Shown here piece by piece: positions 3,154 to 24,782 of a DNA stretch of 64,000 nt. The notes under the pieces are model-generated. The model did no database searches. It was not told the DNA's origin and saw only the letters and a list, made by a program, of their open reading frames with translations. Both the position numbers and the translations under genes were made by a program. How positions within the stretch are numbered: the stretch's first letter is position 1; every line of letters starts with the position of its first letter. This DNA is from a virus (lineage: Duplodnaviria; Caudoviricetes): the IMG/VR virus record IMGVR_UViG_3300033121_001301, positions 1 through 64,000 of that record, one strand, 5' to 3'.

Positions 3154-3314
3154 GACTTGAGCTTTCCTTCACCTTTGAGATTCGAAGAGCACTCAGCGAT
3201 GACAACAGCGTTGCAGGAGCAAGAACGTTGAACACCGAGAGCAGTAACAACAGCTGGCCTGCCGCACTTGGCACAGTAGTAGCACGACAGAGCTTGTACA
3301 GATACTGTGTTCAC
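3150..3314 (-). CDS. Small Cys-rich protein (54 aa; absent from ORF track)
   Basis: GTG start overlaps the TGA at 3311 and its TGA overlaps the ATG at 3153. Sequence MNTVSVQALSCYYCAKCGRPAVV...SCSCNAVVIAEC. Confidence 0.65.
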   Translation of the reverse strand: MNTVSVQALSCYYCAKCGRPAVVTALGVQRSCSCNAVVIAECSSNLKGEGKLKS

Positions 3315-3727
3315 AGTGTTACTCCAGAAGCTGAGGCTTCAGTGACACTAAGGCTATTTTCAGCGAAAACCGGATAAGTAACTTCGTTGAGCCTGCAAGA
3401 ACGATTCACATGACCAGATGAGATAGGCTTCCCTTCCTCATTGCGGACTTCAACACCCGTTATGAGGATTTCACCCCGCTCGGGAGTAGGGAAGTGAAAG
3501 TTGTCGATATTGATCAGCGTGTCATCTTCCTCATTGAACAGGAAGCGAGCCTTCTGCCTGGAGTAACCTGGGTATTTGGCTTCTTCATAACCAGTCATCA
3601 AACAAACGGTGTATTCCTTGATGACTGGCTTCTTAACCTCTGCAGCGAGCTGCGGCAGAGGAACCAGGTCAGCTAAAGGAAGCAAGACACAACAAGCTAC
3701 ACGCTTCAAGAAACCGCGACGAAACAT
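3311..3727 (-). CDS. Twin-arginine-like leader fused to a domain paralogous to 4429-4830
   Basis: N-terminus MFRRGFLK followed by a hydrophobic stretch. C-terminal domain YPGYSRQ...LIN...FP...ITGV...SG...PVFA..LS aligns with 4429-4830. Confidence 0.7.
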   Translation of the reverse strand: MFRRGFLKRVACCVLLPLADLVPLPQLAAEVKKPVIKEYTVCLMTGYEEAKYPGYSRQKARFLFNEEDDTLINIDNFHFPTPERGEILITGVEVRNEEGKPISSGHVNRSCRLNEVTYPVFAENSLSVTEASASGVTL

Positions 3728-3741
3728 GGGAACTCCTGAGA

Positions 3742-4404
3742 TTACGCTGCAAGTTCTGTTGGCCTGATGTCAATTGAACCGCAGTTGGCACATTGCAGGC
3801 AAATGCCTTTGCCGTGCCCGCCATGCCTCAATTGAAGATTATCAGGTTTGTTGTTCTTTTTGTCACCATCAATGTGATGAACAGTCTCATTTCGAGTGAG
3901 TGGCCTACCAAGCTCTCTGGCCTTAACGAGACGGTGTTCTGGGACATAGCCAGCTAGATTAGCCATCACGTACATTGGGTCATCTTTATAGACCAAAACT
4001 AAAACATAGCCTTGATCGTTTACGGACCTTCCACCTTTCCAAGAACCGTGCTTCTCTCCACGATGATGTGTTTCAGTTGGCAAACCCAACCGAATTAGTA
4101 TTCGACCCACAACAGGTTGGCTCATTCCAAGCTGTTTACCAATAGCTGCTTGACTCATTCCGAGACCGCGAAGCTCAGCAACTGCGGTTGCGTACTCTTC
4201 ATCCTTGAATCTTGGAGCTCCAGAATCCGCACCTCGATGCCGAGGTTTATGACCAGCACGTTTGACCATCGTAGTCACAGTCTTGCGGTTAAGCTGATAC
4301 TCTTTTGCAAGAGTACCAGCTTTTTTACCAGCGAGATACTTAGTTACTATCTCTGCTTCAACCTCTGGTAGAAGATCGCGTTTACCGGGCATGAGACGCT
4401 CCAA
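3742..4404 (-). CDS. HNH homing endonuclease with N-terminal HTH domains
   Basis: YVPEHRLV...ETVHHIDGDKKNNKPDNL is an HNH motif. WKGGRS..DQGY precedes it, and an HTH-like GMSQAAIGKQLGMSQPVV is present. The start may be the ATG at 4392. Confidence 0.9.
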   Translation of the reverse strand: MERLMPGKRDLLPEVEAEIVTKYLAGKKAGTLAKEYQLNRKTVTTMVKRAGHKPRHRGADSGAPRFKDEEYATAVAELRGLGMSQAAIGKQLGMSQPVVGRILIRLGLPTETHHRGEKHGSWKGGRSVNDQGYVLVLVYKDDPMYVMANLAGYVPEHRLVKARELGRPLTRNETVHHIDGDKKNNKPDNLQLRHGGHGKGICLQCANCGSIDIRPTELAA

Positions 4405-4428: not shown

Positions 4429-4830
4429 CTAATCCTCTGCGCAACTCAACGCAGCAGGAGCAAATTGTGGCTGGATACCCGCAGACACCGCGCGAGAAGC
4501 GTTCAAAGCACCACTATAGAGAATCTGACCAGCACCGGAAGCAGTAGTCACGATCGCAACGTGTGTGATCGTTTCACTTCCCGAGGTACAAGCCGGGAAC
4601 TGCAAGAGATTCGTATTGGTAAGCGGGTTCGTACCAGTCCAGTCCGCAATAGGGACAGCTACTCGAGCGTAGCTGCCATAAGCGGACTCATTGGTCGTTG
4701 CTGTACCCGCTTCACCGGGGTCAGCAGTGTAGAGAGCAATCCAACGGTTAGCATTGGCTCGCCACGAAGGATCAGTTCCCTTGAGGTTTGCCGCCAGTGT
4801 ATCAGCTTCAGTAGTGTTGCTCTTGCTCAT
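4429..4830 (-). CDS. Small phage tail/tail-fibre-associated structural protein
   Basis: WIALYTADPGEAG...E..Y..YARVAV...TNTNLLQFP...TITHVAI...ILYSGAL..SRAV..G..PQF..AL is a pattern common in tail regions of environmental phages. Confidence 0.75.
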   Translation of the reverse strand: MSKSNTTEADTLAANLKGTDPSWRANANRWIALYTADPGEAGTATTNESAYGSYARVAVPIADWTGTNPLTNTNLLQFPACTSGSETITHVAIVTTASGAGQILYSGALNASRAVSAGIQPQFAPAALSCAED

Positions 4831-5524: not shown

Positions 5525-5863
5525 CTAGTCCGGTAAACTGTGCAACTTCACCTCCACCTCCGTGTAAGGAAGCATCGGTAAAGTCTGTCCGCTCTTGCTA
5601 TGAGTGCAATCACCACAGAAAGCCATCACCCCATCAGTCATGATGTAATGGCAGCAGAAAGCAGGGATTGCATCGTGATCTTCAAACTTGGGCATGCCAT
5701 GATGGAAGTGCCGCACTGATGGAGATATGGTTGGTTTCTCCAGACTCCCATTCCACTCCCAGAACTTACCTTCCTTGACCCCTATCTTCACAGGAACTGA
5801 GTGCCAGCCACAAGCATGGCACTTGTATTGAAGTTCATCACCTTTGAGCAATGCCAGCTGCAT
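5525..5863 (-). CDS. Cys/His-rich protein, DUF6527-like
   Basis: CHAC...WEWNGSLEKPTISPSV...CCHYIMTDG...FCGDCTH. The likely start is the ATG at 5863, after GGAG. Confidence 0.7.
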   Translation of the reverse strand: MQLALLKGDELQYKCHACGWHSVPVKIGVKEGKFWEWNGSLEKPTISPSVRHFHHGMPKFEDHDAIPAFCCHYIMTDGVMAFCGDCTHSKSGQTLPMLPYTEVEVKLHSLPD

Positions 5864-5867
5864 CAAA

Positions 5868-8800
5868 CTACTCCGGTAACTGATCGAGTCTAATCTCATT
5901 TCTGCCATTCATTGACTGAGACAACCCAGTTATTGGATTGAGACCACCTCTTTGAAGCTGCCCCAGAAAACGATTCAAATGATCGTCCCAGTTGTAGTCA
6001 ATTGTGGGAGAATCAGGCTGAATCTGATCCCTGTAGGCAGGAACATTCTCGTATCCACCAGCACCACTGGAACGACTACCTCGCACTGCTGGTATTTTCC
6101 CGAAGTTCTGATTCAAGTTGTTCACCACTGCTTTGAACACATCTGGCCTGTATTCCTTCAAATGCGTCAGACCCACTACGAGTGGCCCAAGCTCTTTGTT
6201 GGTCATCTTGGGAGTCCAACCCATCATGGCATCCTGCTCAGAGAAGTTCTTTCTGAGATTGGAAGTAAGCACCTTCGTCCAGTCATTCACAATGTTCTGA
6301 TCTGATTCAGGGCTGGCTGAAGTCAGGATCTGCGTAGGTGAATAGCCCTTGTAGGCTTCTGGGCCAGCCTGCTGCCAGGCTTGAACGTCTTCTGGTGTTC
6401 GGAGTGCTCCTGTTTCTCTGAGCTTGTATGGGCTCAGGAAGTCACCTAAGTTGCCACCTTTAGCAGAAAGATCACGCCATTGGCCTGCATTGAGTGGTCG
6501 ATACTCTGATAGCCCCCTGACCTTTGCTATTGCTGTCTGAACAGTTGGATCGAGGTAGTCAGGGACATTAGTGAGCTCTTGGTTCGCATCTCTCATGTGA
6601 GCATGACGAGAGAAGTTAGAAGCAATATTGCTGATTGCCTGCTGCCTGAGCTCTGGAGAAAGCGAGGAAAGCGCTTTTCCCAGGTTGTCTGGATTGCGAA
6701 TATCGTCAACTAGCTGGAGACGTTGACCAGCTGTGAGAGCTTTGAAAGCATCCGGATTAGCCAACGAACTGGGATCGTAAGGTTCCAATGGAGTTGAGGA
6801 AATACGAGAAGAGTGCTGAAGAGCACCATGAAGAGCCGCTGCTCTCGGGTCAGCTGCCACGGCTGAGTATGATCCTGCTCCCTTTTCTGACTGGAAATGC
6901 CGGTATTGGTTGTCTTGCAACACCTTGAAGAGTGTGAGCTTTCCTTGAGCTCCAAGGGCGTGGAGTGCATTGGGAACATTTGGGTCTCCATCTGCGGCTG
7001 CTTGAGCCAGGGAATTGATGTCTTTGTAACCGAAAGCCCCAATGGCTTCCATTCCTGGGATCTTGAACGTATCCAGGTTCATTGGAGTTGGTGGAACTGA
7101 AGTATCAATCTCACCCAGAGAGTTCAGATTGCCAAAGTCTTTGCTGCCATAGCCTATCTGCTGAGCCTTATTGAGAATCTGCTGATAGGTTTTTGCTTTC
7201 TGCAATGCTGCTGCATCACCAGCATAGCCGTTCCTGTACATATCACTCAAACGAGGGAATGAAGGATCGTTCATAGCTTCAGAAGCAACGAACTTTGAAA
7301 CGAGACCACGCATCGAAGCTTGTTGCTGCGGCGTTGCTTTGGTTGGATCAATTGCTGAAATCCCAGCTAATAGTTGATCAGGCTGCTCATAGATGATCTT
7401 GCTAAGCGGAGAGAGATTAGGTGGAAGTTGTTGAGAAGGTGGTGCAACCCTCACTCCAGCAGGATTAACTCCTGTTGCTGCCTCCTGAATTGCACCACCT
7501 TGGTTCAAAGCTGGGATCGCACCACCGACTGTAGCGGCTACTAAAGGTGCGCTCCCATTGTTAAAAGGGTTTTGAATTGGTGGCAGTTGTCCACCAGCAG
7601 GGGGCTGAGGAGCTACAGGTGGAGCAGCAGCTGGGCCTGAAGTAGTTGCAACTGGAGGTGCCCCCCAATTAGACCAGGCTTTAGCCGCTCCAGGAATAGC
7701 CCCGATAGCTTTTCCAGCACCATATCCAGCTAATGCCCCCGCATTAAGCTTGGTTTGCAGTGATGGAGGAGGTGGAGCTTGTGGAGCCTTGTTCAGATGG
7801 TTGTACAGTGCGTAGCCACCTAGACCAGCTGCACCAATACCTAATGCTGGCATGAGCCAATTGGGGCTACCAGAAGGTTTGGGTCTCCGTCTGCCGAGAA
7901 GATCTTCTTCCTCTTCTTCATCACCACCCATCATTTTGCTGCCAAGATAACCAGCACCGGCAGCTAAACCGCCACCGATGAGAGTTTCAGGCTCGAGCAT
8001 ATTCTTCCACTCAAAGCCATTGGGGCCATTAGCCATAGAGAACATAGTGCCTAGACCAGCAGCCGCTGGCATGGCTACATCTCGCATACCTGCAGGTGCC
8101 ATGGCTCCAGCTAACATGCCTAAGCCGCCACCAGTTACACCTTTGGTAACTGGATTGAGTTGACCGTGACCAGCGATAGCTGAATCAACATAGCCTTTAC
8201 CAGCCATTCGATTGAGCCCGTAAACCTGGCCAGCTCTGCTGAACTGATCAGGATTGAAAGCTTGAACTGCCTTGGTGCCAACATCAGCAGCCCAGTTCTT
8301 GGTCTTATCCCAAGCATTAGAAAGCCAGTTGGGGTTCGCTTGCTTGAGAATAGCAGCTGCTTTACGCAACTGCACTTTTTGACGCTGTGCATTAGATTCT
8401 GCTTCCTCCTCTTCTTTGATCTTGGCTACATGAGCTGCGAAATTACGAGCTTCTGACTCCTCGTAAGTCTCATTGGGATTTACTGGTTGAGAAGCAAGTT
8501 GAGGTTGAGCTGGTTGAGATGATTTTCCATCCAGCTTATCACCAAGAGCTGCCCAGATGCTTCGAGGATGGTTCCAACTCCAGCCAGGTCGAACACCGTT
8601 ATCAAGAGAGATGCCAGGCAAAGGTCCAGAAATACCAACACCGCCTCTTTTGCCACCAACTCTGATACCGAGGCTTGGCACAGGTACAGTTCCGAGAAGA
8701 TAATCGTAACCAGCCTGCAGACCTACACGGTCGTTACCAAGGTGATACTGCCCACCACCCCAGGCGGGGATGATCGCAGACTTCAAGAAATTGATGCCTA

Positions 8801-11800
8801 ACCCCCCACTCTTAAGAGCTGGAGCAGCTTCTTCCTCGTAGTACGGCTTGTATGGCTGAGCAGCTGGAGCAATGTCAGGCTTGGCTTCAGGAGCATAGAT
8901 GTTGTTGTTAGTAGCAGAACGACGGATCTTGTTCTGAGCTGCTCTGCCACCGAGGAATGGGGCCAGACCTGGGACAATGCCAACACCAACTCTGCCCAGT
9001 GTGCTGTTAGGACTGGCAACACCAGCAATAGTTCTTCGGTGAAGGCGATCGCCAAGCTCAGAAAGAGGGCCAGCTGAGCTCATTGGATTAAGCCAATAGT
9101 GGAATGGTCGTTCTTTCCTCATGTACCGGTGACCAGCAACATCTGAGTCTTTGTCAGCGAAATGACCCTGCATGGAGACGTGCCAAGGTGTTTCTCGCTT
9201 GGTGACTGGGCCTTCAGCACCTTCCAGCTTGTCCTGGTGTGGCTTGATGTGATCAGCGTACATCTGGGCTGTGCTCTTCTCCAACTCGGGAGAGCCACCA
9301 GATCGAATACCAGAAAGAGCACCCACAATGCCTTCCTGATGCCCACTGCGAGTAGGATCCAACTGACTGAGGATTCTCAATGGCATGTTGTTGGCAAGCC
9401 TGGCTCCACCAGTTCTGATGCGGCTACCAAGAGCCTTCTGAACTGGAGCAAGTCCGATAGCTGCCCGGTCATACAGAGAGCTGTCAGGCTTCTTCATGGT
9501 TTTCATCTTGTCAGCAGACCGCTCAATAGCAGTACCGCCAACTGAATCAGCCACGTAAGCATGCTGAATTGGCCCCAGCTTCTTCTTGGGCTTCTTTTCT
9601 TCCTTGTCTTCCTCAGCAGCTTGCTTGAGCATAGCAGCTGCTTTAAGAGTTGGAGTAGCTTCTTCAACAGGAGTGGGCTTTTTGAATTTACGATTAGCCA
9701 TGATGTTACTCGCTATTCTGGTGCCAACGCCTAGAGGGACGCTGGCATAACCTACAGGATCAATTGCCCCACCAACATAAGTGGCGTAAGCAGCTGGTAA
9801 AGTTCGAGTGCGGGCTTCTTCTCTGGATTTCAACTCTTCTGGCTTATCTTTGAGAACATCTTGTAAGGCTTTGTGGCTTTCTCTATTTGCCTGTCTTTCG
9901 TACCAGAGGTTTGCGGCATTACTGGCGTAGGGGATTTTAACTCCCATCGCTTCTGCTAACCCCAACCCGCCTTTCAGGGCGTAAAGATCGCGAAGAGTAC
10001 CAGCAGCTTGCCTGCCCAGCCAAGTCTTTGGTAGCGGCCTATTGTTGAAGTCAATTGCATGTCCAAGCTCATGCTCAGTAACAACTTTATTGTTAGAGGG
10101 CTGAACTACTGTGTTGGTGTACGGATTGTAATGTGGGCTTCGAAGAATAGCTTGAATCAGAGTATTAGAGGGTAGAGCCAAAAGACCTAGAGCTTTCCCC
10201 AGCGGCCCCGTTCGCTTGTTAGTGACAGTTCTCTTCAGATCCTGCCACATGTTGCTGCCACCAAGACTGACTCGAACATCATTCAGCTGGTGGGGTCTGA
10301 CAGAAGCAAAATCCTCTGCTATGTTCTTATGCTCTTGTGCCCTGTCTGGTCTAGCTGGATTTTGAAGCATATTTGAAAGAATCAGCGGCTGGAGACTGGC
10401 AATAGAGCCAACTCTTCCAAGAGTAGCATTGACTGCACCAGTTACTGGATCAGCTGTACCTACTTCAATACCGGCTTTGGTTAGCCCTCGAGAGTTCAAG
10501 AACGATGCGTCGTAGATGGTTGGATAGGTCTTAGCCTGTTTGTAGCTACCAGTCAGCCAATTCGCAGACTTAGCCACTCGAACACGCGAAGGCTCTTCTT
10601 CCTCTGGTTCTTCTCGCTTTTTACCATCAAGTTTATCTCCGATGGCTGCCCAGATGCTTCGAGGATGGTTCCACTGCCAGCCTGGATTAACACCAGTATC
10701 AAAAGAAACACCAGGTATCGGTCCAGAAATACCTACGCCACCTCTTCTGCCACCAACTCTGATGCCGAGATTTGGAACAGGTATAGTTCCGAGAAGATAG
10801 TCATAGCCGACTTCAGCTCCAAGCCCTCTGCCAGTTCCCAAGTGATACCTTCCACCACCCCAAGCTGGAACTGCTGACTTGAGGAAGTTGATCGAACCCA
10901 TCTTGGGAATCATCGGAGTCGGTCCAGCAACTGTAGGAGGAGACTCCATTATTTTCGCTGGGATTGGTCCAGGGATAGGTGCCAATGGCTCAGATGGAGC
11001 AGTTGGAGTTGGTCCAGGTAGTGTGGGTGGAGCTTCAAAGCTATTCCGTAGCTTATCCCTTACCATATCTCTCTTGATCATCTCAGCGCCCATAATGCCT
11101 CGATCGACTTTTTTGTCACCAGTCAGATTTAACCTCTGATGGAGATCCGCCTTTTGTTTAGCGGCTGCATCTCGAAGAGAAGGTCTAGGCTTCTCTGGAG
11201 CTGGTTGGAACTTAGGTTGGTTTGCCAGAGGATCAGTAACCTTCTTTCCGGTCAGATTCTTGTAAAGATGGTAACCACCAGCAGCAGCGCCAGCTCCAAG
11301 AGCCACTGGTGCAACTGCTGAAAGCCAAGAAGGAATGATCGACTTCTTCTTAGGTCTACCGTATTCGTCATACTCTTCTTCAGACCCCATCTTCGGCATA
11401 CCTGCCCCTGGAGTCATGATTTGATTCACAGCCCCGCCAATCGGATTAGGTAGCGTTGGAACTACACCAGGTGAAGCTGGGAACGGAGCTGGCTTGGGTG
11501 CATTGAATGCGGGAGCAGAACCACCGACAGGGTTAGGTAGAGTTGGAACAATACCTGGTGAAGCTGGAGCCGATCCAGAAACAGCAGGCTTCATGCCGCC
11601 CAAAGCTCTTTGAATGTGAGGAGGAACTCCAGTTACCACCCCGTCCAAAGCTTTTTGAATTTGAGGGGTCATTCCTGGAATAGCAGCTGGTTGCTTGGCT
11701 GCTGGTGGAGTGTAAACAGCTGGATCAATGGCAGACTTTTGAGTGAGCATGTGAGAAGCCTTTCCGGACTTTTGAACCGGGGAAGATGGCCGAGGTACTC

Positions 11801-13793
11801 GAATATAAGAGCCAGTGTTTCGATCGTAATCTATCATCCAACTACCATCGCGTTTTTGCAAGCCAAATGGAGTCAGAAAGTTAATCGAACCAGCCTTCTG
11901 AATACCCGTAGTAGTACCAGCAGTAATCGATGGTGCCTTGGTGGGAATCGCAGCTGACTGCGCTGGAGTAGCTCCGATCGCTGGCTTGGGAGCTGGTGGA
12001 GTAGTACCAAGCTGCTTGTTCAAAGCTGGGGCTGTGAGTGGCATGGATGGACCTGCTGGTGTTACCTTCACTGACCCTGGTGGAAGATCAGGAGTTGATC
12101 TGTTTCTGACGTAGATTTTTGGATCTACCCCCGAGCCTGGCATCAGTGGAGCAGTGAAAGCCCCTCTTGGCTTGCTTGGATACTTCACTTCCACAGAAGC
12201 TGGTGGCCATTGCATGTTCTGGTTCAGAGGCTCGCCAGGCTGCATATTGGCTGTTGATTTGCGAAGAGCATTGTTTGGAGCAGCGTAAAACCGTCTAGTG
12301 TAATCGCCTTCAGACTCTCCAGGCTGACGGGGAGCAGAAGAAGGATCAATATTAGAGATCAATTCATTGATTGCTTTTCGTTGCTCAAACAGCTTGTGGG
12401 TTTGACGCGATTCAGCATTGTGCTGCTGCATGGCATCCTGGTTCAACCCTCTCCGGATATCAACCACATTGGTTGACTCTGGTCTTCCAGTGAGATTCAT
12501 GGGCTTTGCGTGATAAGGCAATGCCTGCCGCTGTCTTGCAGCTTCAGCGTCGATCACTTCCTTCTGCTTGAGCCAACGATCACCTGGGCCACCCTCATCC
12601 CAAAAGCCTACCATCGTTGGGATGTCAGCAGAGAGCTTAAGCCAGTTGATAGACCCAGACTTCTGAACCTGTCTACGTTGAGAAAGAAGGTGTTTGAGCA
12701 CTTCCACCCGCGCAGCAAAAGCTTCAGGAGACATTGGGGTGACGTTCTTCATCAAACCAAGAGCCTTCCTGGGTGAGTAGTAGCCACGATTGTTAGCACT
12801 CCAATGATCCAATGGATTGCCACTTAAAGGTACTGAGTCATCAATGTCAGCAGTTACAAAGTGACTTTGACTGCCATGGTATTTCTGCTTCTCAGGGGAC
12901 AAGCCAGCTCTTTGTTCTGGAGTCCAAGCAAAAGAAACAGGCTTTACTGGCAGAAGACGTGGGTTCTTGACAGTCAGACCAGTCTCTTCAAAGAACTCTC
13001 TGGCTGCTGCTGTAGGAATGTCTTCGCCATCATCTACGCCACCACCTGGTACTGCGAATGACTTATCGTTGTCCCATACGCCGCCATAGATCTTCCCCGC
13101 TTTGTCCCTGGCAAACATCTCAGCCCGGTTGCGGAATAGTGGAGCAGCAGCAGGAGCGACTGGAGCTGTTGAAACATCAGCCTTCTTCTGTGTTTCCTTC
13201 GGCTTGGAAATGATCTTAATATCAGCAGATATGTGAGTGATTCCAGGCTTATCAAAGAAACCTACTGGCATGTTCTTATCGAAATGCCTTCGCTCTTTGT
13301 CTTCTACAAATGCGTTGAAAAGCTTGTCGATACCCTCGAAGATTGAAGCAGACTTCCTGCTTTCAAAGAAGTCAGCTTTCCTCTTCTTGGCTTCAGCCAG
13401 TGCTTCTGAATCAATCGAAGATTCTGGCAACTGCACTGGATACTTACCCCAATCGCTCTTTGCAGTGGGTGTACAGGTTCTGCAATCAGAAGGATCAACA
13501 TCATAGACTTGAGCAGCACCGATCGCTCGAGCGCCGCCATATGGCTTCTTGCATTCCTTGCAGTGATGATAGACCGGGTACTTCTGGGCAGCAGCTTTAG
13601 CTGTAGAAGGTGCAAACATCTGAGGATTTGATGCAGGTGCTGGCGGAACTGGAGCTGGCGACTTCAAAGGTAGCTTTGCTACAGGTGGGGTAGCGGGCTT
13701 GGTGTAGTTGTATCTGGAAGATGGAGAATTACCGATGATGGCAAATGGCATAGCTCCACCAGCATCAGCTATCTTCAGGTAATTCCTCGTCAT
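5868..13793 (-). CDS. Giant 2641-aa multi-module (polyvalent) protein, probable virion internal/ejected polyprotein
   Basis: Uninterrupted ORF with a CxxC..CxxC N-terminus, Nudix box, HELGH motif, duplicated modules, Gly-rich hydrophobic segments, Pro-rich linkers and repeated K-x-[AG] junctions. Confidence 0.9.
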   Translation of the reverse strand: MTRNYLKIADAGGAMPFAIIGNSPSSRYNYTKPATPPVAKLPLKSPAPVPPAPASNPQMFAPSTAKAAAQKYPVYHHCKECKKPYGGARAIGAAQVYDVDPSDCRTCTPTAKSDWGKYPVQLPESSIDSEALAEAKKRKADFFESRKSASIFEGIDKLFNAFVEDKERRHFDKNMPVGFFDKPGITHISADIKIISKPKETQKKADVSTAPVAPAAAPLFRNRAEMFARDKAGKIYGGVWDNDKSFAVPGGGVDDGEDIPTAAAREFFEETGLTVKNPRLLPVKPVSFAWTPEQRAGLSPEKQKYHGSQSHFVTADIDDSVPLSGNPLDHWSANNRGYYSPRKALGLMKNVTPMSPEAFAARVEVLKHLLSQRRQVQKSGSINWLKLSADIPTMVGFWDEGGPGDRWLKQKEVIDAEAARQRQALPYHAKPMNLTGRPESTNVVDIRRGLNQDAMQQHNAESRQTHKLFEQRKAINELISNIDPSSAPRQPGESEGDYTRRFYAAPNNALRKSTANMQPGEPLNQNMQWPPASVEVKYPSKPRGAFTAPLMPGSGVDPKIYVRNRSTPDLPPGSVKVTPAGPSMPLTAPALNKQLGTTPPAPKPAIGATPAQSAAIPTKAPSITAGTTTGIQKAGSINFLTPFGLQKRDGSWMIDYDRNTGSYIRVPRPSSPVQKSGKASHMLTQKSAIDPAVYTPPAAKQPAAIPGMTPQIQKALDGVVTGVPPHIQRALGGMKPAVSGSAPASPGIVPTLPNPVGGSAPAFNAPKPAPFPASPGVVPTLPNPIGGAVNQIMTPGAGMPKMGSEEEYDEYGRPKKKSIIPSWLSAVAPVALGAGAAAGGYHLYKNLTGKKVTDPLANQPKFQPAPEKPRPSLRDAAAKQKADLHQRLNLTGDKKVDRGIMGAEMIKRDMVRDKLRNSFEAPPTLPGPTPTAPSEPLAPIPGPIPAKIMESPPTVAGPTPMIPKMGSINFLKSAVPAWGGGRYHLGTGRGLGAEVGYDYLLGTIPVPNLGIRVGGRRGGVGISGPIPGVSFDTGVNPGWQWNHPRSIWAAIGDKLDGKKREEPEEEEPSRVRVAKSANWLTGSYKQAKTYPTIYDASFLNSRGLTKAGIEVGTADPVTGAVNATLGRVGSIASLQPLILSNMLQNPARPDRAQEHKNIAEDFASVRPHQLNDVRVSLGGSNMWQDLKRTVTNKRTGPLGKALGLLALPSNTLIQAILRSPHYNPYTNTVVQPSNNKVVTEHELGHAIDFNNRPLPKTWLGRQAAGTLRDLYALKGGLGLAEAMGVKIPYASNAANLWYERQANRESHKALQDVLKDKPEELKSREEARTRTLPAAYATYVGGAIDPVGYASVPLGVGTRIASNIMANRKFKKPTPVEEATPTLKAAAMLKQAAEEDKEEKKPKKKLGPIQHAYVADSVGGTAIERSADKMKTMKKPDSSLYDRAAIGLAPVQKALGSRIRTGGARLANNMPLRILSQLDPTRSGHQEGIVGALSGIRSGGSPELEKSTAQMYADHIKPHQDKLEGAEGPVTKRETPWHVSMQGHFADKDSDVAGHRYMRKERPFHYWLNPMSSAGPLSELGDRLHRRTIAGVASPNSTLGRVGVGIVPGLAPFLGGRAAQNKIRRSATNNNIYAPEAKPDIAPAAQPYKPYYEEEAAPALKSGGLGINFLKSAIIPAWGGGQYHLGNDRVGLQAGYDYLLGTVPVPSLGIRVGGKRGGVGISGPLPGISLDNGVRPGWSWNHPRSIWAALGDKLDGKSSQPAQPQLASQPVNPNETYEESEARNFAAHVAKIKEEEEAESNAQRQKVQLRKAAAILKQANPNWLSNAWDKTKNWAADVGTKAVQAFNPDQFSRAGQVYGLNRMAGKGYVDSAIAGHGQLNPVTKGVTGGGLGMLAGAMAPAGMRDVAMPAAAGLGTMFSMANGPNGFEWKNMLEPETLIGGGLAAGAGYLGSKMMGGDEEEEEDLLGRRRPKPSGSPNWLMPALGIGAAGLGGYALYNHLNKAPQAPPPPSLQTKLNAGALAGYGAGKAIGAIPGAAKAWSNWGAPPVATTSGPAAAPPVAPQPPAGGQLPPIQNPFNNGSAPLVAATVGGAIPALNQGGAIQEAATGVNPAGVRVAPPSQQLPPNLSPLSKIIYEQPDQLLAGISAIDPTKATPQQQASMRGLVSKFVASEAMNDPSFPRLSDMYRNGYAGDAAALQKAKTYQQILNKAQQIGYGSKDFGNLNSLGEIDTSVPPTPMNLDTFKIPGMEAIGAFGYKDINSLAQAAADGDPNVPNALHALGAQGKLTLFKVLQDNQYRHFQSEKGAGSYSAVAADPRAAALHGALQHSSRISSTPLEPYDPSSLANPDAFKALTAGQRLQLVDDIRNPDNLGKALSSLSPELRQQAISNIASNFSRHAHMRDANQELTNVPDYLDPTVQTAIAKVRGLSEYRPLNAGQWRDLSAKGGNLGDFLSPYKLRETGALRTPEDVQAWQQAGPEAYKGYSPTQILTSASPESDQNIVNDWTKVLTSNLRKNFSEQDAMMGWTPKMTNKELGPLVVGLTHLKEYRPDVFKAVVNNLNQNFGKIPAVRGSRSSGAGGYENVPAYRDQIQPDSPTIDYNWDDHLNRFLGQLQRGGLNPITGLSQSMNGRNEIRLDQLPE
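8524..8775 (-). repeat. Internal duplicated module, copy B (about 85 aa)
   Basis: PAWGGGQYHLG...GYDYLLGTVPVPSLGIRVGG...WNHPRSIWAALGDKLDGK. Shares a 29-nt identical run with copy A. Confidence 0.9.
9720..10500 (-). other. Zincin-like metallopeptidase module inside the giant protein
   Basis: YNPYTNTVV...TEHELGHAIDF (HExxH at 10059-10073) with a downstream LWYERQAN (E..A third-ligand pattern). Boundaries are approximate. Confidence 0.65.
10621..10870 (-). repeat. Internal duplicated module, copy A (about 85 aa)
   Basis: PAWGGGRYHLG...GYDYLLGTIPVPNLGIRVGG...WNHPRSIWAAIGDKLDGK. Confidence 0.9.
12760..13140 (-). other. Nudix hydrolase module inside the giant protein
   Basis: Complete Nudix box G-GVDDG-E-DIPTAAA-REFFEETGL matches GX5EX7REUXEEXGU. 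Boundaries are approximate. Confidence 0.9.
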
Positions 13794-13950: not shown

Positions 13951-14289
13951 TCACATCATTGGTTTTTGTCTGGGCATAACGCTTCCGTTAGGTCCAGTCA
14001 TAGGTTTGGGCATACCAACAGGCTGGCCGATGGTCGAGGGAGCGGGCATTCCCAGCTGCCCCAGAGGCATCGTGCCAGCCATTGGTAGCGTAGGCTGTTT
14101 GTTCGCACCACCAGCAAGGTTGTGCGGGCTCATCAGACCGGATCTCGCATTGACCATTCCATTGGTGTTACCGAAGCCTTCGCCGCGACCGGCAGCGGAA
14201 GACTTGATCATAGTCAGTAACACAGCAGCGGAATGGTTGCCCCTTGCAGCGAGACCAGCAATCTTTTGAAGCGGTGACAGCGTTATCAT
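13951..14289 (-). CDS. Small Gly/Pro/Met-rich protein
   Basis: 112 aa with GGAG-like RBS context. The N-terminal LQKIAG and IKSSAAG resemble the junction motifs of the giant protein. Confidence 0.65.
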   Translation of the reverse strand: MITLSPLQKIAGLAARGNHSAAVLLTMIKSSAAGRGEGFGNTNGMVNARSGLMSPHNLAGGANKQPTLPMAGTMPLGQLGMPAPSTIGQPVGMPKPMTGPNGSVMPRQKPMM

Positions 14290-14320: not shown

Positions 14321-14587
14321 TTAGCGAGTCAGAACAAAACTATCTACGGGAGTCTTATCGATCTCGTAAACGCCCTCTGGGGACTTCCTGTAGCCCATAG
14401 AGAGCAGTTTAGCCTCCAGCGCCTCGGAAGTCGGTGGAGCCTTCCCTGAGCAGTCTGAGACGACCACAGGGCAGTAGGTATTGGTAGTCATGTCACGGAG
14501 AAGCATAACCGTTTTCAGCTCAGGCTTGATCCTTTCGGGGAGTTGGTAGTTTGAGGGGAGTTCGACAGTTACATTCTCAGCGGTCAT
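14321..14587 (-). CDS. Hypothetical protein
   Basis: 88-aa ORF with normal composition, collinear with neighbours. Confidence 0.65.
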   Translation of the reverse strand: MTAENVTVELPSNYQLPERIKPELKTVMLLRDMTTNTYCPVVVSDCSGKAPPTSEALEAKLLSMGYRKSPEGVYEIDKTPVDSFVLTR

Positions 14588-14635: not shown

Positions 14636-14680
14636 TAAAAAAAAGGCAACCCGCATCAGATAGAATCTGATGCGGGGCAC
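14636..14680 (-). terminator. Intrinsic terminator
   Basis: Stem CCGCATCAGA/TCTGATGCGG (14651-14675) with a 5-nt loop, followed on the minus strand by a T run. Lies just downstream of 14702-15751. Confidence 0.85.
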
Positions 14681-15937: not shown

Positions 15938-16525
15938 TTACTTCTTCAGCAGAGCCACCAGGTGGTCTTTATCAGTCTGAGACTGCAGAGTGCTGAGACC
16001 ATTCGCACTGAGTTCAGCACGACGTGTCTCTTCCACAGCCTCAAAAAGCTCGTTGTTCAGCTTTACTTGATCCATCTTGTCAGCTACTGCCAACAGGTCA
16101 GAGATCTTACGATAAGCTGCTGCTGTTCGTGATGCGTAAGCTCGCATCCGTTTGTCAGCGTGTGGATAGTCGGTGAACGCAGAGTCCAGATTCTGAGCAG
16201 CTTCATTGTAAATAGCTACCCGAGCCGAGATCCTCCACGATGCGAACCACAGACTGGTCGTCTCTGTGGTTGTCCACTTCCTGATGGAACCGATATGGTT
16301 GTACAGCTCTTCCGAAGCAACGGCTGTGTCGTTGGCTGGAGACCCACTGACGGTCTTTTCGCCAAACATTCCGAAGCACCAGGTTTTGTCCTGAATACTG
16401 CGATTCTTGTAGGAATCAGCAATATTCGGAGCATCTGCTGCGAAGGCAGATGAACCAGTGAAGAGAAGAGCAACTGCCAGGCTGACGGTGATGAAGTTTT
16501 TCACGGTGAACAGATTCCCAAACAA
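15938..16525 (-). CDS. Putative exported helical protein with signal peptide
   Basis: TTG start. KNFITVSLAVALLFTGSSAFA|ADA is a Sec-type signal with an AxA site. Confidence 0.7.
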   Translation of the reverse strand: MFGNLFTVKNFITVSLAVALLFTGSSAFAADAPNIADSYKNRSIQDKTWCFGMFGEKTVSGSPANDTAVASEELYNHIGSIRKWTTTETTSLWFASWRISARVAIYNEAAQNLDSAFTDYPHADKRMRAYASRTAAAYRKISDLLAVADKMDQVKLNNELFEAVEETRRAELSANGLSTLQSQTDKDHLVALLKK

Positions 16526-23580: not shown

Positions 23581-24022
23581 CGCCAAAGACCGCTGGGCTT
23601 TGAGCTTCTTGAGATTCGTTTTCGGCAAAGGGGGTGGGGGGCTTCGTTTCAATTTCGCCCAATTCTTCATCGAATTCTCCAGTCAGTAAGGTGTGATCTA
23701 CGACAAAAGGCTCTTCCTCCTGATTGGCTTCAACAGCCTTCACAACATAGTCTCGAGCCACTGTAATGGGCTCAGTACCTGGAACCTTCAAACTCTCTTG
23801 AAGAATAGTCAGCAACTGAGAAACTGCATCAGCTCTGCGATTCAGCAGATTGAATACCTGTGACTTGTCAACCTTGTTAACGAACAGTGTGTTAACCCGG
23901 CTGTCTACGAAATGTGCTTGAACTTCCATCTCGTCTGAGCTCACAACTCGTATGAGCCCAGCTGAGGAAGCTTCTGTTTCGAATAAAAGCACTACTATCG
24001 GTTTATCACTTGGCGTTGGCAT
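23528..24022 (-). CDS. Hypothetical protein with acidic C-terminus
   Basis: 164-aa ORF collinear in the operon. Confidence 0.7.
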   Translation of the reverse strand: MPTPSDKPIVVLLFETEASSAGLIRVVSSDEMEVQAHFVDSRVNTLFVNKVDKSQVFNLLNRRADAVSQLLTILQESLKVPGTEPITVARDYVVKAVEANQEEEPFVVDHTLLTGEFDEELGEIETKPPTPFAENESQEAQSPAVFGDDSAFFDDGIVESQEAA

Positions 24023-24782
24023 CTGCTAAGTCTATTGCCTCCAGCCAGGCGTTAAGCTTGCATACGTTCTCAGTAAACCCAGGCGAGATGCTCTTAACGA
24101 GAGACAGCATGGATCGCTGTTTCTCGGTCAACGCAGCAACACCAGCCTGGTTAGCAGCGATCTTGTCAGCCACATTCACGCCATCGCGAGCCTGTTGGTT
24201 AACAAAGTCATTCCACTTGTTGTAGAAATTATGCAATGCTTCTAGCTGCTTAGTCAACGACAATGTTGCAGAAGCAGACTCAGCAGCTGGTGCCTCACCG
24301 GTGACTGCTTTCACCTCAGCTTGAAGCTTTCGACAGGTCCAATCCTCTTCAGCACATGTCACTGCCACCGAGTCACGCTCAGATTCGTTCTTGATTCGGA
24401 GCAGAAAACGAACGTGAGTTGGTGTCCAAGTATAGGTCTTCGCATCCTTGGTTTTGAGCTCTTTCAGCTGATCAAAGCCAGCATCATCGTAGGCTTCAGC
24501 AAACCTGATCGCGAATTGGATCTTTTGCTTGTAGGTGCTCAGCTTCTTGGCTACTTCGGCTGTGATCTTGGGACCATAAAGATCCTGACCTTTGGCATCC
24601 ACTAACTGGACACCCACAGCATGGATGGCTTCAAGCTCGACGTTCTCGCTGTTTCCCAGCAGTTGCTTAACACTCTCACAGAGGTTCTCAACTGCCTTTT
24701 CCCTCTCTTCAGCTTTGGTGGTCAGCTCGTCGACAGCCTTGGCTACCTCTTCCATGACCGGTGCTTTTGCTTGCTTTGCCAT
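24006..24782 (-). CDS. Protein with DUF1016/YhcG N-terminal-like helical domain
   Basis: TWTPTHVRFLLRIKNESERDSVAVTCAEEDWTCRKLQAEVK resembles the LSWSH..LL.......R......A....WS.R.L pattern. RBS AGGAAACAGG. Confidence 0.7.
   Translation of the reverse strand: MAKQAKAPVMEEVAKAVDELTTKAEEREKAVENLCESVKQLLGNSENVELEAIHAVGVQLVDAKGQDLYGPKITAEVAKKLSTYKQKIQFAIRFAEAYDDAGFDQLKELKTKDAKTYTWTPTHVRFLLRIKNESERDSVAVTCAEEDWTCRKLQAEVKAVTGEAPAAESASATLSLTKQLEALHNFYNKWNDFVNQQARDGVNVADKIAANQAGVAALTEKQRSMLSLVKSISPGFTENVCKLNAWLEAIDLADANAK

Follow-up and report, generated by a model that had tools for sequence, protein, structure and literature searches.

What is the role of a short peptide that recurs, often doubled, at the apparent module boundaries of a single giant phage protein? 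The question is raised by an open reading frame (ORF) of 2641 amino acids (aa) (5868..13793, minus strand) in the IMG/VR virus record IMGVR_UViG_3300033121_001301. The record is 85,272 bp long, and its first 64 kb constitute the stretch analysed here (the window). The giant protein is designated P0001; proteins of its relatives likewise carry P numbers, and the relatives' loci carry L numbers. A first-pass annotation of this DNA had described the ORF as a candidate polyprotein, cut into about ten effectors at nine K-x-[AG] junctions. The ORF exists as claimed, and the nine motifs lie at residues 378, 633, 675/686, 801, 964, 1075, 1384, 1661 and 1811, where they flank the Nudix domain (206-376), the HExxH domain (1088-1382) and the two Gly/aromatic copies (975-1058 and 1675-1757).

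As a definition of the junction, however, the tripeptide proved statistically empty: bare K-x-[AG] occurs 31 times in P0001, as against 35.6 +/- 5.0 times in 5000 shuffles. The signal resides in a longer, bipartite peptide, K-[SAMQ]-[GA] followed by (S)-I-N-[FWY]-L and K-[SQ]-A. More generally, an opening K-x-[G/A] and a closing K-x-A enclose a spacer that is either (S)-I-N-[F/W/Y]-L or A-[IM]-L. The composite pattern K[SAMQ][GA]-x0-4-[NH][FWYM]L was observed 7 times (0.02 expected) and the doubled pattern K-x-[GA]...K-[SQ]-A 6 times (0.06 expected); each count was matched by 0 of 5000 shuffles, so that the enrichment proposed earlier is borne out for these two forms. A six-frame scan of the 85-kb record placed the composite motif in P0001 only, plus one 72-codon junk frame. 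Beyond the original nine, junction-like sites were found at residues 203-205 (KKA), 1-9 (MTRNYLKIA) and 1972-1980 (KPSGSPNWL), and NWL or SWL directly precedes both Gly-zipper helices. Likenesses to the sites of Prp (LNLQFF/A), prepilin peptidase and signal peptidase, to the clamp-binding motif and to the TolB box were considered; none fits the motif.

The junction copies differ in synonymous codons for Ser, Gly, Leu, Ile, Phe and Asn, and share only ~65% nucleotide identity across ~27 nucleotides (nt). The repetition is therefore maintained at the level of the peptide and does not stem from recent DNA duplication. A purely DNA-level recombination signal was rejected on the same ground, as the copies diverge synonymously. 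As judged by codon comparison, it is thus the junction peptide on which selection is shown to act.

Read along the chain, with every feature on the minus strand, P0001 opens with the half-junction MTRNYLKIA (aa 1-9; 13767..13793), followed by DAGG; the relatives P0003 and P0004 begin MTRNYLKAA-DAG. Module M1 (aa 10-202; 13188..13766) is conserved in those two proteins, and its C-terminal part is common to P0010 and P0012. The only four Cys residues of P0001 are found in M1, spaced CxxC-x22-CxxC (aa 78-107; window 13473-13562), and are probably those of a zinc ribbon in this N-terminal module. Junction J0, KKA (aa 203-205; 13179..13187), was recognised in the comparison with P0003. It is followed by M2 (aa 206-376; 12666..13178), a Nudix hydrolase module with a Pfam match (PF00293, E 5.7e-10) and PDB Nudix matches, in which the Nudix box GX5EX7REUXEEXGU, read from the translation, is intact at ~aa 248-270. 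M2 is present in P0005 and missing in P0003 and P0004. The Nudix domain (aa 231-285) was the sole match of P0001, a protein rich in Ala, Gly and Pro, to Pfam (E<=1) and PHROGs.

Junction J1, QKSGSINWLKLSA (aa 377-389; 12627..12665), precedes module M3 (aa 390-631; 11901..12626), which is duplicated in P0004. Next come J2, QKAGSINFLT (aa 632-641; 11871..11900), and the short module M4 (aa 642-673; 11775..11870), which is missing in P0003, P0004 and P0015. J3, QKSGKASHMLTQKSA (aa 674-688; 11730..11774), corresponds to IQKA-SHMLTQKSA in P0015 and leads to the Pro/Gly/Ala-rich module M5 (aa 689-799; 11397..11729). J4 consists of PKMGS (aa 800-804; 11382..11396), and the same pentapeptide lies at both flanks of module M6 (aa 805-962; 10908..11381). 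M6, missing in P0003, has one acidic and one basic patch, together with SWL and a hydrophobic Gly-zipper helix (aa 819-840).

J5, PKMGSINFLKSA (aa 963-974; 10872..10907), and J6, AKSANWLTGSYKQA (aa 1074-1087; 10533..10574), bound M7 (aa 975-1073; 10575..10871), the first copy of the Gly/aromatic module. M8 (aa 1088-1382; 9648..10532) is a zincin-like module bearing HELGH and is missing in P0003 and P0004. A fragment, P0016, is 72% identical to it and continues into RKSGSFNLL after the module. The nearest ESM Atlas clusters of M8 are stand-alone viral proteins of 237-362 aa (score 0.93-0.94), and its nearest named family is Peptidase_M48, with a score of just 0.77. J7, LKAAAMLKQA (aa 1383-1392; 9618..9647), introduces M9 (aa 1393-1659; 8817..9617), conserved in P0003, P0004 and P0010. 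After J8, LKSGGLGINFLKSA (aa 1660-1673; 8775..8816), the second Gly/aromatic copy, M10 (aa 1674-1809; 8367..8774), is again missing in P0003 and P0004. The last junction, J9, is RKAAAILKQANPNWL (aa 1810-1824; 8322..8366). In all, the junctions bound the Nudix module, the HELGH zincin-like module and at least eight more. The first-pass annotation had counted two duplicated modules. One of them stands: BLAST detects a single internal duplication (aa 975-1058 against 1675-1757, 77% identical). The other is only a repeated element (~aa 805-850 and ~1960-2003) in which an acidic and a basic patch occur with [SN]WL and a Gly-zipper hydrophobic helix.

C-terminal to J9 lies a conserved, membrane-type core. 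Its first part (aa 1825-2003; 7785..8321) is found in all 11 clusters of the family and contains a Gly-rich hydrophobic domain, an acidic patch, KPSGSPNWL and a Gly-zipper hydrophobic helix. A Pro/Ala-rich linker (aa 2004-2104; 7482..7784) connects it to the second part, a mainly helical C-terminal domain of ~540 aa (aa 2105-2641; 5871..7481). AlphaFold2 (AF2) models aa 2105-2641 as mostly helical, with a predicted local distance difference test (pLDDT) score of 78 and a predicted template modelling (pTM) score of 0.78. No fold match was found with Foldseek against PDB and BFVD or in a wide VIA-align comparison; the best template modelling (TM) score was ~0.15, and structural comparison gave Z scores of at most 5, limited to a single helical hairpin. 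This model suggests that the 537-aa domain (5871-7481) may represent a new fold.

Comparison with relatives bears directly on what the junctions do. When aa 1822-2641 were used as the query of an exhaustive HMMER search, 11 clusters out of 1.84 billion representatives were recovered; a word-based search yielded four long relatives. Megablast and tblastn searches of P0001 against 50,697 phage records gave no match, an alignment-based scan of IMG/VR returned no relatives, and a metagenome scan yielded just one locus, L012, which was spurious. P0003 (1709 aa) and P0004 (1897 aa), whose genes are embedded in flanking DNA ~80% identical to the window, have only part of the modules of the 2641-aa P0001. 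P0003, for example, aligns with aa 1-205, 382-636, 787-804, 1389-1655 and 1831-2641 of P0001.

The breakpoints lie within the motif. At the Nudix module, P0003 reads QKKA-INYLKLSA where P0001 reads QKKA-[Nudix module]-QKSGS-INWLKLSA. At aa 805-962, P0001 has PKMGS on both sides, and P0003, which lacks the module, has PKMGSVNFL. P0015 reads IQKA-SHMLTQKSA where P0001 holds an extra unit, and P0004 skips module 1674-1809, with ...EEEAAPAL fused straight to KAATILKKANPNWL. In three comparisons, 6/8, 5/6 and 4/6 of the ends of high-scoring segment pairs fell at most 6 residues from a junction, a zone that covers 8.4% of P0001 (binomial P 8.5e-6 to 6.5e-4). The alignments thus show that modules are gained and lost at the junction peptide between close relatives. 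The proposal of a modular cassette architecture, in which homologues gain or lose whole junction-bounded modules, is hence upheld.

The motif is conserved among relatives of 53-90% identity, as the earlier reading had required of homologues. P0005, which is 53% identical in the C-terminal domain and has other modules, bears the variant K-S-G-S-L-L-[KS]-G-A at four to five places. Distant members of 475-1140 aa that consist of the core only (P0006-P0009, P0011 and P0013) lack the composite motif; therefore, the motif travels with modularity. Among these, P0007 has IKSA-DAG and AKA-DAG ahead of two tandem copies of the DAGxPMPFAII module that in P0001 comes after the N-terminal half-junction. 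In P0010 and P0012, a DUF5661-like N-terminus is fused to the giant-protein family. In the phage encoding P0005, the modules are divided between neighbouring ORFs that encode P0010 (1074 aa) and P0005 (1839 aa), at L010:3-8742 and L011:884-4484; these ORFs lie 10 nt apart in different frames in two independent assemblies, and each has its own hydrophobic helix.

A junction-like site also occurs outside the giant protein. Upstream of its gene, a small protein of 112 aa (13951..14289, minus strand), syntenic in L003, L007, L008 and L011, carries ...LLTMIKSSA before a conserved GRGEGFGNTNGM core. Members of this small family share the core (V/A)GRxEG[FY]GxTN and a Pro/Met/Gly-rich tail, and their N-terminal add-ons vary: none, a KAQ-motif region, or a KAQ-motif region plus DUF5661. 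Between add-on and core, (L/V/M)-I-K-S-[SA]-A is found in 3/4 loci (L003, L008, where it reads LKQA, and L011), with a weaker version in L007. Thus, two neighbouring genes share a boundary signal, which in the 112-aa protein is a weaker form of the composite in P0001.

Could the junction be an uncleaved seam, that is, a conserved linker that leaves adjoining modules independent and an in-frame splice point for cassette exchange within one tethered, membrane-anchored chain? VENN and related pre-toxin motifs, which mark off the exchangeable C-terminal domains of polymorphic toxins, function in such a manner. Breakpoints right inside the motif, regenerated short repeats (PKMGS...PKMGS) and fast turnover of modules between ~80% identical genomes would all be expected of a seam. 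In addition, no protease has been identified, and the motif is absent from the other proteins of the fragment. However, copies as diverged at the nucleotide level as these make a poor recombination substrate, and the peptide is conserved in 53%-identical relatives whereas the surrounding linkers are not. Moreover, a half-junction at the extreme N-terminus, or in a separate small protein, serves no seam role. On this evidence, a seam is unlikely, although well short of negligible.

The N-terminal copy and the small upstream protein also bear on the idea that the junction is an uncleaved binding or targeting peptide, docking the protein to the capsid or scaffold interior, a chaperone or a membrane surface. 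Presence of the motif in that second protein would suit such a function, as would the INFL/NWL hydrophobic core, which resembles the [SN]WL ahead of both hydrophobic helices. The N-terminal copy recalls the logic of the T4 capsid-targeting sequence; T4 targeting peptides, however, are themselves cleaved off. Docking leaves unexplained why K-x-[G/A] brackets every module and why modules carry a terminal K-x-G of their own, and no partner has been identified. We regard this possibility as improbable.

The best explanation as a whole appears to be that P0001 is a modular polyvalent phage protein whose junction peptide is most likely a processing site, a reading that we put forward tentatively, with its chances a little below even. 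In its favour speak the enrichment and specificity of the motif, selection at the peptide level, conservation in modular relatives, the junction-centred breakpoints, the half-junction at the N-terminus and the K-x-A of P0007, the related site in the small upstream protein, the stand-alone occurrence of M8-like phage proteins and the neighbouring DUF6527 protein. In this explanation, the conserved core (aa 1825-2641), which distant relatives have by itself, is ancestral, and as many as ten further modules have been strung N-terminal to it in this clade, including the Nudix hydrolase, the HExxH zincin-like domain, a second hydrophobic-helix module and the duplicated Gly/aromatic module. Modules enter and leave between the two halves of the junction; each therefore brings its own terminal K-x-[G/A], and both the reading frame and the junction are regenerated. 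Proteolysis would take place at either end of the short hydrophobic spacer, each time behind the small residue of K-x-[G/A], and would free the modules as separate proteins and strip the 9-residue leader MTRNYLKIA. Cleavage at the junction peptide, as a polyprotein reading demands, seems possible, if on balance somewhat doubtful. The enzyme might be a prohead protease, encoded in the ~59% of the genome that the record lacks, or else the Ser-His protease of DUF6527/BubE type whose gene lies immediately downstream. The hydrophobic helices, the proline-rich spacers and the fibre-like and beta-rich, structural-looking neighbouring genes make delivery with the virion plausible.

Several observations, including those on the DUF6527 gene in the following paragraphs, count against this processed, polyvalent protein. 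Among the sizeable proteins of the fragment, the composite motif is confined to P0001, unlike the spread over head proteins in T4, phiKZ and SPN3US. The prohead protease expected elsewhere in the genome by the first-pass annotation did not emerge, nor did a capsid or portal gene, from Pfam and PHROGs searches over the 55 ORFs of the ~41% complete record. The embedded HExxH module was rejected as a general processing enzyme, as P0003 and P0004 lack it yet possess junctions. In distant relatives, the gene lies among small unknown genes after the replication module. Finally, for aa 201-1400 AF2 gave a poor model (mean pLDDT 39), with the Nudix fold and some helices visible. In this low-confidence model, the junctions at 633, 675, 801, 964 and 1075 lie in coil, J1 (378) touches a helix end, and J7 sits inside a short helix; the coil placements are weakly consistent with linkers.

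The second candidate enzyme, a protein of 127 aa (5525..5908, minus strand), is encoded by a gene that overlaps the 3' end of the giant gene by 41 nt. The protein belongs to the DUF6527/BubE family (Pfam PF20137, 30.6 bits against a cut-off of 23.6). To our knowledge, the BubE-type family has so far been known only from bacterial ubiquitin-like conjugation systems. DUF6527 corresponds to BubE, which experiments have shown to be a Zn-stabilised Ser-His protease; its substrate is the ubiquitin-like protein BubA, behind whose C-terminal Gly it cleaves both peptide and isopeptide bonds (bioRxiv 10.1101/2024.11.21.623953). The phage protein retains all residues that are at least 90% conserved in an alignment of 24 bacterial and 4 phage homologues, including the four Zn-binding Cys of the family (C30, C33, C86 and C101) as well as H36, S64, H87 and H103. 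Could it be the junction protease, after the manner of the viral papain-like enzymes that act as both polyprotein proteases and deubiquitinases? Apart from the overlap with the giant gene, the gene keeps its position in three related contigs (L003-L005); the family cleaves behind Gly, P1 at the junctions would be occupied by Gly or Ala, and the invariant residues are retained.

Co-occurrence with junction-bearing proteins is not strict, however: DUF6527 is missing from the sequenced flanks of P0005 and P0010, which bear junctions. Homologues are also widespread at unrelated positions. A tblastn search found 149 relatives in bacterial genomes, and those examined are prophage accessory genes located after endolysin, MuF or tape-measure genes rather than in Bub operons, so that they belong to head, lysis or tail modules; in other phages, the homologue has tail-fibre genes on both sides, follows a portal-MuF fusion or is close to TerL. 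Furthermore, the known substrate is a folded ubiquitin-like (Ubl) domain, which BubE recognises (bioRxiv 10.1101/2024.11.21.623953). A role of this protein in cutting the junctions is thus quite unlikely in our view. We give similarly little credence to the related picture of a true polyprotein, in which ~twelve units, among them the Nudix domain, a metallopeptidase, membrane modules and a core acting as pore or anchor, would be made as one chain and freed at a dedicated bipartite K-x-[G/A] code, maybe by the BubE-type protease, with the code doubling as a cassette socket.

A simpler reading is that the DUF6527 protein serves as a counter-defence deconjugase against host Bub/Bil conjugation, which the scattered distribution of these prophage accessory genes fits better. 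By homology, the gene at 5525-5908 may thus encode a phage counter-measure to Bub/Bil ubiquitin-like defence. ThiF/E1, E2 and Ubl families were not found among the 55 ORFs of the record. In another phage locus carrying a DUF6527 gene, a 1167-aa fusion of portal, papain-like, 2H-phosphoesterase and MuF domains (L095:3798-7301) lies two genes upstream of it. The tetrapeptide x-F-A-[DE] recurs at the apparent domain boundaries of this fusion (TFADKKK, SFADGGE, KFAEPVS, EFADSIG) and, from its pattern, may be another junction code.

Being the largest gene and encoding hydrophobic segments, the giant ORF could also be taken for a tail tape-measure protein with embedded enzymatic domains, its repeats being periodic tape-measure motifs. 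Two small, possibly chaperone-like genes (88 and 112 aa) precede it and structural-looking genes follow. However, the protein has no Pfam or PHROG tape-measure match, and its sequence is Pro/Gly-rich and, in the N-terminal portion, largely non-helical. Lengths of 1709-2641 aa among near-identical genomes would imply a ~50% difference in tail length, family members of 475-860 aa exist, and the downstream genes are small unknowns, not Dit/Tal or hub genes. We consider a tape-measure function very improbable. The sole tape-measure match, of a 258-aa ORF (24006-24782) to phrog_2276, looks like a coiled-coil artefact and was set aside.

How, then, does a junction-bearing polyvalent protein relate to known systems? 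Polyvalent proteins unite several (2-15) effector-type domains of unrelated kinds in a single polypeptide of a phage or plasmid, and both their delivery with the DNA and proteolytic release of their domains have been predicted (Iyer et al. 2017, PMC5512222). Like P0001, they are giant, carry unrelated enzymatic modules and quickly come to differ in architecture between relatives. Unlike them, P0001 shows none of the hallmark domains (MPTase, ArdC-N, DdrB-ParB, MuF) at Pfam E<=1, and has a membrane-type core and one conserved bipartite junction peptide at every module. The text of the 2017 article (PMC5512222) does not contain the word "linker", the only related term looked for, and to that extent describes no repeated junction peptide. 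The polyvalent protein is thus the closest known concept, to which P0001 adds the repeated junction peptide.

The first-pass annotation had drawn its precedent for Lys-linked cleavage from the phage capsids of HK97 (Lys103) and A511; the delta domain of HK97 is ~103 residues long. The closest mechanistic precedent is multi-site processing by prohead proteases. In SPN3US, the prohead protease gp245 cuts at A-x-E; multi-site processing is also known from phiKZ, and x-x-Glu motifs are found on many head proteins (PMC10052503). The prohead-protease substrates of T4, phiKZ, 201phi2-1 and SPN3US resemble P0001 in that a short motif of tripeptide type recurs in them, its fixed residue lying two positions ahead of the presumed cleavage point. 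They are internal or ejection proteins that lose N-terminal leaders, as P0001 would be if it were virion-delivered and processed. They differ in that the motif in T4, phiKZ and SPN3US occurs on many head proteins and mostly serves to trim N-terminal propeptides, whereas here it marks one giant protein and, in weaker form, a neighbour. Moreover, their motifs are Glu-based, whereas that of P0001 is bipartite and built of Lys plus a small residue.

Two further systems offer partial parallels. In polymorphic toxins, a conserved peptide marks the boundary of cassette exchange (VENN in CdiA, DPxGL in Rhs), and the Rhs site is also autoproteolytic. There, however, one junction precedes one variable C-terminal toxin, whereas P0001 has ~ten serial junctions, variable N-terminal modules and a conserved C-terminal core. 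Coronavirus PLpro (LxGG) and the adenovirus protease perform both polyprotein processing and Ubl deconjugation, a logic that would match if DUF6527 is the enzyme; this is an analogy only, with an unrelated enzyme family and a bacterial host. A full-text literature search returned no report of a junction-coded phage polyprotein.

The genome around the giant gene is that of a very divergent tailed phage, with best TerL matches only 22-28% identical. Classed as linear, the record is estimated by CheckV to be ~41% complete. A circular record was rejected: its ends do not overlap and its two open end-ORFs are in different frames, and it is therefore a fragment. Recognisable replication genes encode PolA, a primase, DnaB-like and other helicases, SbcC and a UvsX-like protein; others encode TerL, HNH endonucleases, two glycosyltransferases, a Baseplate_J protein and a GP4-gp80-like fibre protein. 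PDB sequence searches with three plus-strand ORFs beside TerL came back empty. On its upstream side, the giant gene is flanked by the replication module and small genes. The downstream side holds the DUF6527 gene, small ORFs, the GP4-gp80-like fibre gene (PF23140, E 3e-22), an HNH endonuclease gene and genes for beta-rich, structural-looking proteins.

The order of a ~350-aa gene, a ~85-aa gene, the small junction protein gene and the core protein gene is maintained in distant relatives. In the window, a strong terminator-like hairpin (14650-14676) stands between the 349-aa gene on one side and the 88-aa, 112-aa, giant and subsequent genes on the other; the 88-aa syntenic gene (14321..14587, minus strand) is the first past it. 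The hairpin has a 12-bp, GC-rich stem and T-rich tails on both strands, as in a bidirectional terminator-like element. The 349-aa protein was rejected as a protease, having no invariant His or Cys and only one invariant Ser; ESM Atlas returned nothing for it. Further along, a 195-aa protein (15938-16525, minus strand) with a classical Sec signal peptide (…SSAFA/AD) is a secreted phage protein. An HNH endonuclease gene (3742-4404, minus strand) sits between two paralogous gp80-like fibre genes (4429-4830 and 3311-3727), an arrangement also found in L003.

The family of P0001 is thus very rare, with a core for which no fold could be recognised. In its own right, the neighbouring DUF6527 gene merits attention as a possible counter to bacterial ubiquitin-like defence. 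If the junctions are indeed processed, this phage lineage would use a polyprotein strategy like that of RNA viruses, in which a peptide grammar admits new effector modules without new promoters, ribosome-binding sites or packaging signals. Such a grammar would explain how one protein can differ by nearly 1000 residues between 80% identical phage genomes, and would offer a workable way to predict which mature products arise from giant "hypothetical" phage proteins.

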